Assembly: GCA_002269645.1 (NCBI GenBank)
Contig: NIVC01004635.1
Span: 1-40,105 of the forward strand
Origin: Macrostomum lignano
Lineage: Eukaryota
DNA length: 40,105 nucleotides
Direction: 5' to 3'
The stretch's first letter is position 1, and each line of letters opens with the position of its first letter. The translations under genes were made by a program, and so were the position numbers. The notes beneath the pieces are model-generated. The model ran no database searches, was not told where the DNA came from, and saw only the letters and a program-made list of their open reading frames with translations. This document shows positions 25,392 to 35,921 of this stretch, piece by piece.

Positions 25392-26062
25392 ACTACTAAG
25401 CAACGGCAGATGGCTCGATTTTGCGAAGGTCCGTCGGGCTGATGTCGGCCTCTAGCACCGCGGCAAGGTGCTCCCTCGGGGTGTACCACCTCCCCCGGGG
25501 TGTACCTCCAGCGGGGTGGGTGTCCAGCGAGTGTACCTCCAGCGGGGTGGGCCTCCCGCGAGTGTACATCCGGCCGGCTGGGCGTCCAGCGAGTGTACCT
25601 TCAGCGCATGGGCCTCCCTCGGGGTGTACATCCGGCGGGGGGATTCCCGCCCCTCCCACCAATGTCGTGTGCACGCGGTTAGTGTAGGAAGGAAACCCCC
25701 GATGCTGACGCAGCCCTGTACACTGAGCAACCGGCCCCCCATGCGGGGGACAGAGAGCAGCCCTGTAGCTGGGGACAGAGAGCAGCCCCTGTAGCAGGAG
25801 GGGTAGTGCGTGGAGAGCCGCCATCCCCCTGTAGCAGGGGACAGATAACAGGCGACCCCTGTAGCAGTATGAGGTGGGGTACAAAGAGACACGGGGTGCT
25901 GGGACAGAGAGTGCGTGGAGGCACCCTGCGCTGCCCTGGCATGTCGCAGCACGCGGCGTGGACAGAGAGGGAGTGTGAGTCACACGGAGGGACAGAGAGC
26001 TTCCCCAGGCCGGGGTGGTAGAGGGACAGACCGGCGGTGAGTGATAGAGAGCTCCCCCCAGG
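25392..26062. repeat. Left terminal inverted repeat (~671 bp)
   Basis: Reverse complement of 35278-35921 apart from nt ~10-18, a ~25-bp extra subrepeat and a few substitutions. Confidence 0.95.
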
Positions 26063-26153
26063 GCAGTAGAGGACTTGAAAAGAAAAAACACGTATTTTAG
26101 TTGTTTCAGGTTCAGGCCATCCGGCAAACAGAGCAAAGCTCTCCAACAGTGTT

Positions 26154-26783
26154 TTATTTAGCATAAACTACGGGGTAGCGCCCCAACACATTAGCATAGT
26201 AGCGAACAGATGCGTTCTGCAAGCAATTAACAATCAAGTAGGAGTAGGGCTCCCTAGTGGCGTCTTCGTACATTTGAACAAAACTTTTTGGGTTAGCGGG
26301 GACAAGCTGCTTTGCAATATGGGCGACTGTACTAACGTCCCGTACATTGCGGAACAATACAAGGTAGTTTGCGTTAAGGGATTGAGTGCGGTGCTCCTTG
26401 CCCTTGGCAAACAGGTTTTGTACAAGGTACCAAAGCCGGAATCCCACATGGCTGACTTTGCGAGTGAAAAATGCGGTAAAAGCAGCGTTTTTTTCCATGG
26501 CTTGCATTTGATCATCGACAACGAGTAGAATATTCGGAGCGGGAACATAGGTTTCAGGGTTAAATGTAGACGAGCGAAAATTGACAGGGTACGGTAATTC
26601 AAACAGTTCCGGGTCTGGATAGTGCCCAAACCAATCAACGCGAACAGGCTTAGGGTCCTGAAAAAACTCGTTTCGCAGCAATTCTTTAACAAGAGTTGTT
26701 TTTCCGCTCTGGTTAACACCAGCAAAAATCGCCGAAGTATTTGGAGCAAACTTTAGAGCGTCAGGATCAATTGTTTGGTACAT
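26154..26783 (-). CDS. A32/FtsK-like genome-packaging ATPase
   Basis: Walker A GVNQSGKTT, Walker B LLVVDD, and the Polinton-type YLVQNLF...RTQSLNANYLVLFRNVRD motif. First ATG at 26783. Confidence 0.93.
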   Translation of the reverse strand: MYQTIDPDALKFAPNTSAIFAGVNQSGKTTLVKELLRNEFFQDPKPVRVDWFGHYPDPELFELPYPVNFRSSTFNPETYVPAPNILLVVDDQMQAMEKNAAFTAFFTRKVSHVGFRLWYLVQNLFAKGKEHRTQSLNANYLVLFRNVRDVSTVAHIAKQLVPANPKSFVQMYEDATREPYSYLIVNCLQNASVRYYANVLGRYPVVYAK

Positions 26784-26817
26784 TTTCAGGGCGAGTTGAC
26801 ACTCCAAATATTAAAAA

Positions 26818-27255
26818 CTATTTTATTTGTAGAACATGTTTTCGAACCATCAAATCATTTTCAAGCAGATTGGTAGAGTAACATTCCCTTAAAATCTTTT
26901 CAATCGACAACCCCTCTAAAAAGTGCTTTTCGGCCACAAAAATCACATGCGGCCCACACGCTACACTTAGAGGGTGTTGAACAGGGTGGCGATTCATAGC
27001 AACAGGTGAATGTACATGCTTCGAGATCCAAGCCGAGAGCAATTCCGGCACGGGTTCAATACACAGAGGGTCAAAAAATGTCACACTCTTATCATCGTGT
27101 AGGCAAATCAGTCCCCAGTGGGTGCCTGGCAGATTACCCGTGTCAAAATTAATTACATATGCAGCAGGGTAAACAGGTGCAGGAATTCTGTCGAGAGGGC
27201 AAACGTGCACTTCCACAGGTAGTTTTAAACACTCCAAAATTTCCAACGTGTTCAT
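26818..27255 (-). CDS. Adenain-like cysteine maturation protease
   Basis: INFD...PGTHW, FFDPL and QHPLSVACG give the His/Asp/Gln/Cys catalytic set. ATGA overlap with the MCP stop. Confidence 0.92.
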   Translation of the reverse strand: MNTLEILECLKLPVEVHVCPLDRIPAPVYPAAYVINFDTGNLPGTHWGLICLHDDKSVTFFDPLCIEPVPELLSAWISKHVHSPVAMNRHPVQHPLSVACGPHVIFVAEKHFLEGLSIEKILRECYSTNLLENDLMVRKHVLQIK

Positions 27256-34038: not shown

Positions 34039-34388
34039 TCCTCTGACTCGTCAGATTCGTCGAGAAAGAAATAGTGGAAGAAATTGTCGACTCTATTCTT
34101 TTCAACTGCACAAAGTATTTTGTCTGACAGGTGAAATTCGCAGTCTCCTTTTACGTACAGGCGCTTCCCGTCGATAACTTTGATAGATGCGCCGCCTCCG
34201 AGATCGTAATCTGTGCAGCTAGTGCCCAGAAATTTCATTCGATGCCATTGTGCTCGACTAAACACGGCTCCTGGACAGCTACAGTTTTGACAGTGGATGC
34301 GGAAACGCGGTTTGTTTGGGTCCCAATATCCCACTTCCAGCACTGCGTTGTCAACGTGGGTGTACACTATTTCCGATTGCCAGTACAT
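34035..34388 (-). CDS. Small protein, possibly PC4-like ssDNA-binding, with an acidic tail
   Basis: GAVFSRAQWHRMK resembles PC4 GISLNPEQWSQLK; C-terminus DESDESEE. First ATG at 34388. Confidence 0.45.
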   Translation of the reverse strand: MYWQSEIVYTHVDNAVLEVGYWDPNKPRFRIHCQNCSCPGAVFSRAQWHRMKFLGTSCTDYDLGGGASIKVIDGKRLYVKGDCEFHLSDKILCAVEKNRVDNFFHYFFLDESDESEE

Positions 34389-34422
34389 TTCGATATTGTT
34401 GAGAAATACCAATTTTATTTAT

Positions 34423-35202
34423 TTATAGGCTGCCGTCTGAACAGATTTCCAACCATTCCCTCCACTGTAGAACGGTTCTCTCAATTGATAAAAGTAAATA
34501 CGCCGCTAGGAGCCCCCGGTTGCTGCTGCGCGCTTCGTAAAGACAGTTGAGATATGTGTCTCTATTTGCATACGCAAATGATACGGGTTCTGGCAGAATC
34601 CGGTTGATCAACTTTGATAATAACAACCTAGCAGTTCTACCATTGCCGTCGCTAAAGGGGTGTATGGTGAGAAACTTTTCTAGGAAATATGCTCCTGTCA
34701 CTACTGCATCACGCAAGATTTGTGGCTCTTTTATGTCTCTAGTTAATTTTACCAGCTGCCGTTCAATATTTTCTGGGGCACTGTAATACATACTCGCGCC
34801 TGCTGGCTTGGCGTGCTTAATTCTATACGATCCTGCATTCGGGAGCAGTCCTCTGCACACGCGTGTGTGAACTTGTCTAACAAACTCTGTGTCAATTAAC
34901 CCCCTCGTGTCATTGAGGTGTATTGCCGCACTCCATAGATTGGCTGTGACCATACAGGACCGGGTTTTTATCGCTTCTTCTGCTTCCTCCCAAGTCAACG
35001 CCACCTCTCTCTCCTCAATGTTTACTTCAGTTACGAATGCCAGCCGGGCTAGATACGTGAATTCTAAGCGCTCCTTTGCGGTCAATCCCTCGATTCTTTT
35101 CCTAGTGTCTGATAACAATCTTTCAATGAGGGGTAATCTGGCGCGCACGCTCTCGTTGCTGAAATAGGGGTTATCAGTTATACCCTCTTCCATGTTCTCC
35201 AT
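34423..35202 (-). CDS. Fic/Doc-domain protein (putative AMPylase)
   Basis: Canonical HPFSDGNGRTAR motif, YRIKHA flap and FVRQVHTRVC helix. First ATG at 35202. Confidence 0.92.
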   Translation of the reverse strand: MENMEEGITDNPYFSNESVRARLPLIERLLSDTRKRIEGLTAKERLEFTYLARLAFVTEVNIEEREVALTWEEAEEAIKTRSCMVTANLWSAAIHLNDTRGLIDTEFVRQVHTRVCRGLLPNAGSYRIKHAKPAGASMYYSAPENIERQLVKLTRDIKEPQILRDAVVTGAYFLEKFLTIHPFSDGNGRTARLLLSKLINRILPEPVSFAYANRDTYLNCLYEARSSNRGLLAAYLLLSIERTVLQWREWLEICSDGSL

Positions 35203-35277
35203 ACAGAGGGTTTTGTACACTGCTTCTATTTATGGTTGCATTAACACGTTGCTCGCGGCCTGTCTGTCCCTCTGCAG

Positions 35278-35921
35278 CCTGGGGGGCTCTCTATCACTCA
35301 CCGCCGGTCTGTCCCTCTACCACCCCGGCCTGGGGAAGCTCTCTGTCCCTCCGTGTGACTCACACTCCCTCTCTGTCCACGCCGCGTGCTGCGACATGCC
35401 AGGGCAGCGCAGGGTGCCTCCACGCACTCTCTGTCCCAGCACCCCGTGTCTCTTTGTACCCCACCTCATACTGCTACAGGGGCCGCCTGTTATCTGTCCC
35501 TTGCTACAGGGGGATGGCGGCTCTCCACGCACTACCCCTCCTGCTACAGGGGCTGCTCTCTGTCCCCCGCATGGGGGGCCGGTTGCTCAGTGTACAGGGC
35601 TGCGTCAGCATCGGGGGTTTCCTTCCTACACTAACCGCGTGCACACGACATTGGTGGGAGGGGCGGGAATCCCCCCGCCGGATGTACACCCCGAGGGAGG
35701 CCCATGCGCTGAAGGTACACTCGCTGGACGCCCAGCCGGCCGGATGTACACTCGCGGGAGGCCCACCCCGCTGGAGGTACACTCGCTGGACACCCACCCC
35801 GCTGGAGGTACACCCCGGGGGAGGTGGTACACCCCGAGGGAGCACCTTGCCGCGGTGCTAGAGGCCGACATCAGCCCGACGGACCTTCGCAAAATCGCGC
35901 CATACGGAATCCCTTAGTAGT
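35278..35921. repeat. Right terminal inverted repeat (~644 bp)
   Basis: Reverse complement of the left TIR; ends CTTAGTAGT. Confidence 0.95.

Follow-up and report, generated by a model that had tools for sequence, protein, structure and literature searches.

A Maverick-like element of Macrostomum lignano with a virion module and no recognisable replicase gene

Architecture of the element and its ends

The window is the whole stretch of DNA analysed, 40,105 nucleotides of Macrostomum lignano contig NIVC01004635.1, and at 25392-35921 it holds a Maverick-like element of 10.5 kb with 13 co-oriented genes on the minus strand. The genes occupy 94.7% of the element interior, the largest unassigned gap being 112 bp and the longest unassigned ORF 185 aa. 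The features, in contig order, are the following.

25386..25391, no strand: left target-site duplication (TSD), TACGCA
25392..26072, plus: left TIR, 681 bp, beginning ACTACT
26154..26783, minus: putative A32/FtsK-like packaging ATPase, 209 aa, Walker A GVNQSGKT; weak Pfam AAA; 30-44% to ATPases of pPolB Mavericks
26818..27255, minus: adenain/Ulp1-like cysteine protease, 145 aa; Pfam C48 E 0.06; homologous to the post-MCP gene of other Mavericks
27252..28535, minus: putative major capsid protein (MCP), 427 aa; 30-35% to MCP-position genes of pPolB Mavericks, E~1e-57
28565..28909, minus: basic core-like protein, 114 aa; in metagenomic Maverick L151 its homolog precedes MCP, E 1e-6
28953..30092, minus: putative minor capsid protein (mCP), 379 aa; C-terminus homologous to that of the corresponding gene in other Mavericks
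30096..31174, minus: RVE integrase with C-terminal chromodomain, 359 aa as a single frame; Pfam rve E 1e-9, Chromo weak
31287..31922, minus: conserved Maverick ORF, which we take from gene order to be PZ-like; tblastn matches in other Mavericks E~1e-5
31925..32314, minus: basic core-like ORF, 129 aa, presumably PW-like from gene order; 26-36% to genes of other Mavericks
32353..32889, minus: TBP-like frame without its own ATG; Pfam TBP E 9.5e-5; dN/dS 0.089
32753..33432, minus: SSB of T7 gp2.5/nucleocytovirus type with basic tail, 226 aa as a single frame
32827..32893, minus: predicted 67-nt GT-AG intron from the SSB frame to the TBP-like frame
33481..34038, minus: ORF with CxCH motif, 171 aa in 18 of 26 loci, present in both families
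34035..34388, minus: 117-aa ORF, family A only
34423..35202, minus: Fic-domain protein with intact HPFxDGNGRxxR, family A only; Pfam Fic E 7e-14
35269..35921, minus: right TIR, 653 bp, terminating AGTAGT
35922..35927, no strand: right TSD, TACGCA

In short-read contigs of 3 of 4 runs, the empty site of this insertion is found with exactly 6 shared letters, which fixes the element boundaries and marks the insertion as polymorphic. Together with the matching TACGCA copies and the ends, this empty allele bears out the TIRs and the 6-bp TSD described in an earlier note on this DNA, and the 13 co-oriented ORFs given there were recovered as well. The two TIRs are 95% identical from nt 19 on, with one 28-nt length difference, and at nt 7-26 the left end is unlike the right one. 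The same nt 7-26 are hypervariable among copies of family A, as the near-identical loci are called here, and GATTTTG at about nt 26-32 is conserved, also in the sister family B. All 42 family-A ends (42/42) begin ACTACTA and those of family B begin ACTACG; these ends, 5'-(ACT)2//(AGT)2-3' in the element, lie outside the three Polinton end motifs listed in PMC8097293, namely (AGT)2, (AG)3 or (AC)3A.

Regarding the gene junctions, 4-nt ATGA overlaps occur between the 117-aa and 171-aa ORFs and between the MCP and protease genes, while the PW/PZ and INT/mCP junctions have gaps of 2-3 nt. Of the 12 ATG starts, 6 are preceded by a TATAWA motif at a distance of at most 75 nt (P=0.00015 against random windows). 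The stop/start overlaps and junction TATA motifs noticed earlier were both recovered, and TATAAATAAA at a junction also serves as an AATAAA signal. The integrase and SSB genes are each broken into two frames in the 25392-35921 copy, being single frames in 9 and 20, respectively, of the 26 family-A loci. The earlier note does not mention these breaks. Indels separate this copy from the short-read contigs in both genes, so part of the frame breaks may be assembly errors.

Virion and integration genes

The element carries an RVE integrase, TIRs and a 6-bp TSD, as Polintons/Mavericks do, and sequence homology to genes of pPolB-bearing elements points to a Maverick-type morphogenetic module of MCP, ATPase, protease and mCP. 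Homology to other Mavericks' genes likewise upholds the earlier reading that integrase, MCP, mCP, protease, ATPase and core genes are kept. The MCP had no match among PDB sequences, and a PHROGs search matched 0 of 10 element proteins. The name of the packaging ATPase is drawn from context, and the 114-aa basic protein has a putative core function; the L151 homolog of the 129-aa basic ORF has a weak Adeno_PX match. The mCP is the fastest-evolving gene, at 49% in amino acids between families A and B and with the top within-family variation. The MCP phylogeny that had been proposed as a check placed A, B and three database MCPs in one 100/100 clade, which is not sister to the co-resident families.

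Recurrence, sister family and mobility

All 26 near-identical family-A loci examined are colinear and have no polymerase, and 14 have both ends with matching TSDs, all 14 different, the 10.5-kb layout thus recurring with different TSDs as the earlier note had asked. Family B (11 TIR pairs of 9.8-10.5 kb, 5 loci read) has the same replicase-less layout, its MCP being 88% identical to that of A. Between A and B, pS is 0.66-0.91, with synonymous sites near saturation, and dN/dS is 0.03-0.24 where computable. The element thus belongs to an old, still-mobile Maverick lineage, in which the substitution pattern indicates purifying selection on the capsid, protease, ATPase, integrase, SSB and TBP-like genes. 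A one-off deletion of a pPolB Maverick is rejected by the 26 colinear loci, the 14 TSDs, the divergence of family B and the MCP clade, and the suggestion of an evolved layout instead of a fresh deletion agrees with its sharing by 26/26 loci and family B. A longer near-identical copy with pPolB, named beforehand as the case that would overturn this view, was not present among the 26 loci: the extra DNA of copy C4 is a 3,489-bp P-element-like transposon, that of C2210 is a 3,356-bp insert without long ORFs, and C355 has a 1,101-bp replacement opening with the same sequence as the C2210 insert.

When ends of different copies are compared, the 20-nt tips have a mean divergence of 43%, as against 0-5% for a 1.6-kb interior stretch. 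Both tips are identical in 9 of the 14 TSD-confirmed copies and unlike in 5, the identity being as expected from panhandle repair; it could alternatively stem from gene conversion after insertion. An integrase and TSDs are enough for movement, and no end-to-end joint of a free linear or circular form is seen in the contigs of 4 short-read runs, consistent with a cut-and-paste transposon with a capsid that has no extrachromosomal replication, being excised, packaged or re-inserted by its integrase and gaining copies through host chromosome replication only. This is very improbable, as the SSB is retained under selection, and the tips, exchanged among copies yet alike within the majority of them, suggest free genomes that replicate and recombine.

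Absence of a replicase

When 12 ORFs from pPolB loci of the M. lignano genome were used in tblastn, no match was obtained at E<=0.01, and a pPolB profile of these 12 ORFs gave a best E of 5-25 on the six-frame translations of A and B, compared with 2e-159 and 1e-41 for two controls. Neither the 26 family-A loci (26/26) nor the 5 family-B loci read (5/5) have pPolB. No helicase or primase is recognisable in the element, the sole Walker A being that of the packaging ATPase, nor were an SF1/SF3 helicase with or without a fused polymerase/primase, or a Rep or HUH protein, found in it. The tblastn, profile and Walker A checks agree with the earlier observation that pPolB is absent and a helicase not evident, and tblastn and profile reveal no polymerase remnant among the ORFs, the other outcome named beforehand as one that would overturn the view. 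By their sequence, families A and B stand outside the strict definition of Polintons, for which pPolB is the defining gene (PMC8502044).

The same genome has at least 119 PF03175 matches (91 of 974 candidates scored). Among the matches listed, the nearest pPolB on a contig shared with an A or B copy lies 33-131 kb off (4 contigs). The two pPolB Mavericks whose ends were read have AGTAGT termini, start 5'-A and show no TIR similarity to A or B; the suggested search for pPolB Mavericks with ACTACT termini, or with ACTAC ends at all, found none in these two.

SSB, TBP-like and TIR-proximal genes

The fold model of the SSB has a pLDDT of ~85 across residues 1-165 (35 for a single-sequence model) and aligns with ASFV CP312R (Z 12.3, rmsd 3.7, 157 aligned) and T7 gp2.5 (Z 9.0); on this model, the gene has a predicted gp2.5-like OB fold and encodes a putative ssDNA binder. 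Nucleocytovirus proteins make up all of the best 50 predicted-fold matches (E 1e-12 to 1e-7). Searches of the ESM Atlas with the SSB and the 117-aa ORF returned nothing, and two weak phmmer matches to bacterial repeat proteins (P0016, P0017) were discarded as chance. Among the loci tested, the SSB and the 171-aa ORF are found only in the pPolB-less families, no SSB homolog being present in the pPolB elements read.

The TBP-like frame has a single-sequence Pfam score of 22.6 (cut-off 22.9), and its profile matches many TBPs across both repeats, at positions 29-189 (E 4e-9); at the sequence level, it is a real gene with a two-repeat core and a putative TATA binder. It is probably spliced: of 17 loci tried, 16 matched the pattern, and each of these has the donor and acceptor of the predicted intron, which is 67 nt long in family A and 195-197 nt in family B; the splice joint is absent from the contigs of the 4 short-read runs. 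A conserved programmed frameshift from SSB to TBP-like was ruled out, the frame offset differing between A and B.

The 171-aa ORF, at 62% in amino acids between A and B and with a dN/dS of 0.059, had no family match. The closest solved relatives of the Fic protein are FICD-type (E 4e-7), and both it and the 117-aa ORF are missing from family B. Within the TIR-proximal block proposed earlier, the SSB-like, TBP-like and Fic assignments held; for the PC4-like label of the 117-aa ORF, Pfam, Atlas, PDB and pairwise comparison gave no support and no homologs were found for a profile. The idea of a regulatory cassette in place of pPolB is rejected, because Fic and the 117-aa ORF are confined to family A, and TBP-like and PC4-like genes also occur in pPolB-bearing Mavericks: TBP-like genes are present in 3 of 4 such elements read (C2529, C297 and C3758; tblastn or Pfam), and C114 has a Pfam TBP match (E 1e-20) plus a PC4 match.

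The nucleocytovirus affinity of the SSB, with ASFV CP312R among the solved structures, would suit a satellite in the manner of virophages, dependent on a large DNA virus of the worm that would supply polymerase and helicase and would have donated the SSB. Virophages and helper-dependent PLVs (such as PgVV/Gezel-14T) similarly have their own capsid and depend on another virus, and some integrate, but as described in 10.1101/2022.07.28.501842 they parasitise giant viruses of protists, use helper promoters and, PgVV included, carry a polymerase gene, whereas the element is from an animal, has no replicase and bears TATA/AATAAA signals and a probable spliceosomal intron, which point to nuclear transcription by host Pol II. 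A satellite of this kind is quite improbable.

How the element may be copied

We favour, with a probability of roughly 60%, a virion-forming satellite of the Maverick lineage that is copied by pPolB supplied in trans; helper dependence of Polintons is raised as an open possibility in PMC5499653. Transcription of the element would be nuclear, with Pol II acting on TATA promoters, as suggested by the TATA/AATAAA junction motifs, the probable spliceosomal intron and a TBP-like factor of the element's own. Its linear genome would be replicated by strand displacement that begins at the ends, with terminal protein and pPolB provided by another Maverick-type element, either a co-resident pPolB family or a TIR-sharing partner, and the displaced strand would be coated by its own SSB. 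The product would then be packaged into its own capsid and re-integrated by its own integrase, the need for a virion being indicated by the dN/dS of MCP, 0.028 between A and B, and by the mCP as the most variable gene. The ends are short direct repeats (ACT-ACT, ACT-ACG), such as are expected for slide-back priming of protein-primed replicons, and these repeats, the shuffled yet mostly matching tips and the SSB kept in cis argue for end-initiated strand displacement. A source of pPolB is at hand in the at least 119 PF03175 matches of the genome, and the two pPolB elements with ends read have a 5'-A start in common with A and B.

Origin recognition by pPolB and terminal protein is usually specific, so the AGTAGT ends and dissimilar TIRs of the two pPolB Mavericks speak against such a helper, as does the lack of any free form in the contigs of the 4 short-read runs against extrachromosomal copying, and the lack of SSB in the pPolB elements read, with its closest folds in giant viruses, suggests that the element has met a helper of a different sort. 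Copying by host nuclear replication would need no viral polymerase; the SSB, possibly joined by the 171-aa protein or the TBP-like factor, would serve as an origin-binding recruiter. This would accord with ends that do not resemble the termini of the pPolB families read, with the nuclear Pol II signals and with two long-diverged families lacking a replicase. A precedent in another class is given by the 'Ariadnavirales', which according to 10.64898/2026.08.29.747986 have no DNAP and keep this type of OB-fold SSB; however, they still encode a helicase and a primase-helicase as described there, and the element has neither, nor Rep/HUH. Moreover, linear triplet-repeat ends that lack a terminal hairpin would require a terminal protein to solve the end problem, and host replication appears unlikely.

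If pPolB acts in trans, its source could be a second segment. In such a two-part endogenous Maverick virus, a capsid/integrase segment of ~10 kb and a pPolB replication segment of 7.6-8.7 kb would be packaged and integrated in trans through common ends, a tentative proposal that we hold to be doubtful. Four elements of 7.6-8.7 kb (C816:51991-59604, C356:258171-265746, C1588:126956-134539 and C1705:124106-132755) carry family-B TIRs, gave no match for the MCP, integrase, ATPase, TBP-like and Fic genes, and have at least about 4 kb of unexplained interior, the size of a pPolB gene. No match was found in them to one pPolB type (50 of 119 candidates scored) or to PF03175 (91 of 974 scored), and a transposon insert of like size would fit as well. 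For family A, no TIR-sharing partner was seen (40 of 221 TIR candidates scored). Bombyx mori bidensovirus has a two-segment genome, and bidnaviruses, with a Polinton-derived pPolB and TIR/panhandle ends, resemble the partner-segment reading; they are ssDNA viruses with a parvovirus-type capsid and no integrase, and a partner segment for the element is only a lead.

Relation to other Mavericks

The element shares with Mavericks/Polintons/adintoviruses (Polintoviricetes) the TIRs, 6-bp TSD, RVE integrase with chromodomain, MCP, mCP, ATPase and cysteine protease, and PMC8097293 describes intact vertebrate elements with the same genes and 6-bp TSDs. It differs in having no pPolB, a length of 10.5 kb compared with 12.7-24.6 kb, all genes on one strand and a nucleocytovirus-type SSB. 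Group 2 Maverick-Polintons, MELD viruses and Tlr1 also combine a Maverick-type capsid module with the lack of a standard pPolB (10.64898/2026.06.19.733378; PMC8502044; PMC11161782), but in these accounts pPolB is swapped for an SF1/SF3 helicase, usually fused to a polymerase/primase, whereas the element has no replacement.

The known exceptions exchange pPolB for another replicase, whereas this lineage keeps its capsid genes and makes new insertions with none recognisable. We found no description of a replicase-less animal Maverick in the literature outside subscription journals, Repbase reports and supplements, where non-autonomous Polintons may be recorded. A lineage without a replicase for long enough to near-saturate synonymous sites suggests that animal Mavericks can live as dependents, which bears on the open question of the Maverick life cycle (PMC5499653), and surveys requiring pPolB beside the integrase, as in PMC11414722, would miss such elements. 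With M. lignano being a laboratory flatworm and the insertion polymorphic, particles, terminal proteins and a helper can be sought directly. The SSB of giant-virus type, the TBP-like gene with its probable intron and the exchange of TIR tips among copies provide further handles on Maverick replication.

Relatives with gene context were found neither in viral contigs nor, for the A/B MCP alignment, in metagenome contigs. Metagenomic L151 plus L143 have the same PW-PZ-INT-mCP-core-MCP-protease order as the element. The longest contig has the same value, 8,848, for SSB homolog P0021 and for MCP P0005, which hinted at one shared contig, but the 13 metagenomic loci obtained with P0005 have no SSB or TBP-like gene.

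Boundaries and gene content

The element at 25392-35921 is flanked by TACGCA hexamers, begins with ACTACT and ends with AGTAGT, having TIRs of 681 and 653 bp with 95% identity from nt 19 onward. An empty site with six shared letters is present in contigs from three of the four public runs compared with the window; thus, the insertion is polymorphic and its boundaries are known exactly. Thirteen genes occupy 94.7% of the interior, with all unassigned gaps at or below 112 bp, confirming the two TIRs, the 6-bp TSD and the packed, co-oriented ORFs described in an earlier note. Counted from the right TIR, these are:

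Gene 1, - strand: Fic (Pfam E 7e-14)
Gene 2, - strand: 117-aa ORF
Gene 3, - strand: CxCH ORF
Gene 4, - strand: SSB
Gene 5, - strand: TBP-like frame
Genes 6-7, - strand: conserved Maverick ORFs, which we take, from gene order, to be PW-like and PZ-like
Gene 8, - strand: RVE integrase-chromodomain (E 1e-9)
Genes 9-10, - strand: minor capsid, then a basic core-like ORF
Genes 11-13, - strand: major capsid protein (MCP), protease, ATPase

The capsid-module labels are putative, being assigned by homology to genes of Mavericks bearing pPolB, the protein-primed polymerase that defines the group, and not by folds. No polymerase remnant is detectable in the element by searches whose controls scored 2e-159 and 1e-41, and its sole Walker A motif is that of the packaging ATPase, in agreement with the claims that pPolB is absent and no helicase evident. 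Copying of such an element by host replication is considered unlikely.

Recurrence of the layout and age of the lineage

A search using the right-hand 4.1 kb as query, in which 40 of 95 candidates were scored, returned 51 matches. Twenty-six loci (family A, the window included) were read in both halves as near-full matches of at least 95%, some cut by contig ends, leaving out degraded, partial and family-B rows. Gene order is colinear in all 26. At fourteen, both ends are present and bordered by the same TSD, which differs from locus to locus; several further loci that share flanks with those fourteen are probably duplicate assemblies of one insertion, and flanks are unmatched at two. The integrase and SSB genes, each broken across two frames in the window copy, are intact single frames at 9 and 20 of the 26 loci, respectively. 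Longer near-identical copies carrying pPolB had been a point to check: three loci have extra DNA, none with a polymerase. The element interior is present in 20 runs from 8 studies of one organism. One family-A TIR, on contig C4 of the flatworm genome G000, houses a P-element-like transposon of 3,489 bp (L108:3875-7363), with a THAP domain and one 981-aa frame.

Family B is a sister family with an MCP 88% identical to that of family A and different TIRs, starting with ACTACG, with TSDs at both clean loci read; its gene order, from five loci, is that of family A without Fic and the 117-aa ORF. Sixteen B-type TIR pairs (40 of 84 candidates scored) comprise eleven of 9.8-10.5 kb, four of 7.6-8.7 kb and one 14.3-kb inverted rearrangement. 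In one family-B copy (L076/L077, G000 C1313:243594-257956), a 3.66-kb inverted duplication of the capsid end, with 99.9% identity, has produced two arms that each run from MCP to ATPase.

Comparing both families across 11 genes, pS is 0.66-0.91 and pN 0.06-0.37. Six genes give dN/dS values of 0.03-0.24 and one an unreliable value; in the other four the ratio cannot be calculated, since their pS is above 0.75. The virion genes are under selection. In the MCP tree (17 rows, deep branches weak), both families group with three database proteins (about 80% identity) in a clade with 100/100 support. The five other co-resident MCPs, of which four belong to elements with a demonstrated pPolB, fall outside it. 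Short contigs of other samples carry SSB homologs with 36-60% identity; therefore, the lineage probably extends beyond this genome. A UniRef protein labelled Macrostomum lignano is 97% identical to the element SSB. The 26 colinear loci, the fourteen TSDs and the similar family B bear out an evolved, recurring layout instead of a fresh deletion: the pPolB-less element is a real, active and long-lived variant, a lineage and not an accident.

The SSB protein

The 226-aa protein, modelled from a 9-sequence alignment, is confidently predicted across residues 1-165. Its fold matches ASFV CP312R (Z 12.3, rmsd 3.7, 157 aligned), T7 gp2.5 (Z 9.0) and phage Enc34 SSB (Z 7.5), with unrelated rows below Z 5, and Foldseek concurs, which supports the proposed SSB-like gene. 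The 50 best matches in a set of predicted viral structures are nucleocytovirus proteins where named; a large DNA virus acting as the helper is nevertheless rather improbable. In the pPolB elements read, the best E for the SSB profile is only 0.09. The element thus retains a predicted SSB but no polymerase.

The TBP-like gene and promoters

The TBP call holds, as sequence searches uphold it. The frame lacks an ATG in both families and overlaps the SSB tail, with an offset differing between A and B. At 16 of 17 loci tried, a GT donor follows the conserved IKV of SSB and a CAG acceptor precedes the TBP core, spaced by 67 nt in family A and by 195-197 nt in family B; judging from these motifs, splicing would fuse the two frames in both families, the joint being seen in no read of the runs compared with the window. 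TATAWA lies upstream of 6 of 12 starts (P 0.00015), in line with the TATA motifs reported at junctions, and the genes would be expressed by nuclear Pol II.

The proposal of a regulatory cassette in place of pPolB does not stand. TBP-like genes occur in pPolB-bearing Mavericks of the same genome (C2529, C297, C3758 and C114), and PC4 matches in C114 and a metagenomic Maverick (L151); consequently, mimics of transcription factors belong to the common cargo of Mavericks here and do not take the place of pPolB. According to a figure legend, MELD virus has TBP-like genes (PMC8502044).

The C114 Maverick (L130/L131, G000 C114:251152-265467; 14.3 kb) carries pPolB, TBP (Pfam E 1e-20), a PC4-like gene and an exonuclease-looking ORF. 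That of C2529 (L125/L082/L083, G000 C2529:17164-35936; 18.8 kb, AGTAGT ends) has a pPolB with an endonuclease VII insert, a deoxynucleoside kinase, a dUTPase-like ORF (labelled by eye) and a TBP-like frame seemingly also starting at a splice acceptor. Fic gene pairs in G000 C458, C2412 and C42, with 38-52% identity to the element Fic, are possibly related to its donor.

Terminal tips and replication

The 42 family-A ends bear 17 distinct 20-nt tips (nt 7-26), with a mean difference of 43%. The tips are set between ACTACTA, which never varies, and ATTTTG, which hardly does, whereas a 1.6-kb interior stretch is only 0-5% from the window. In the window, the tips lie at 25398-25417 and 35896-35915, the remaining TIR being near-identical. 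Tips resemble mixes of a few short blocks, some mutual reverse complements, and the two tips of a copy are identical in nine of the fourteen TSD-confirmed copies and different in five, including the window copy. The simplest reading would be recombination of free genomes plus panhandle copying from one end to its partner during strand-displacement replication, as drawn from adenovirus-type replication; movement without free replication is very improbable. Replication initiated at the ends by pPolB supplied in trans is preferred over its three rivals, with a probability of roughly 0.6.

Many pPolB genes exist in this genome, with at least three sequence classes and many co-resident Maverick families. 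A pPolB Maverick with ACTACT termini, sought after the earlier note, did not emerge: both with ends read (18.8 and 14.3 kb) start with AGTAGT. The best lead to the polymerase supplier is four short B-TIR elements (7.6-8.7 kb):

G000 C816:51991-59604
G000 C356:258171-265746
G000 C1588:126956-134539
G000 C1705:124106-132755

They are absent from the TBP-like (94 of 94 candidates scored), Fic (81 of 81), MCP, integrase and ATPase match lists. Tentatively, they might be a pPolB-bearing partner segment, or else a transposon-filled non-autonomous derivative.

Comparison with known systems

The element shares its capsid module, integrase, TIRs and TSD with Maverick-related viruses and is grouped with them, falling outside the strict Polinton definition as worded in passages of PMC8502044. 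As excerpted, group 2 Mavericks, PLVs and Tlr1 have a helicase or primase-polymerase in place of pPolB (10.64898/2026.06.19.733378, PMC11161782, PMC4028283), a swapped replicase, from which the element differs. Its end motif lies outside the vertebrate Maverick set in the relevant portion of PMC8097293. Further comparison comes from parts of PMC10748475, PMC12220804, PMC11414722, PMC5499653, 10.1101/2022.07.28.501842, 10.1101/2022.09.25.509311 and 10.64898/2026.08.29.747986. Searches of the full-text literature, leaving aside supplements, Repbase and subscription journals, listed no account of an animal Maverick that lacks a replicase.

Surroundings of the insertion

The window also holds:

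6950-19500: extended arrays built from one family of 15-bp repeats
About 8270-12030: non-LTR retrotransposon interrupting these arrays, with endonuclease, RT and RNase H in two frames; possibly a repeat-targeting element
24873-25241, + strand: fibrinogen C-domain exon (Pfam E 5e-26), stopping 150 bp short of the left end of the element
36650-39190, + strand: broken LTR element remnant right of the insertion (DUF1759, E 8e-27), presumably Bel/Pao-type
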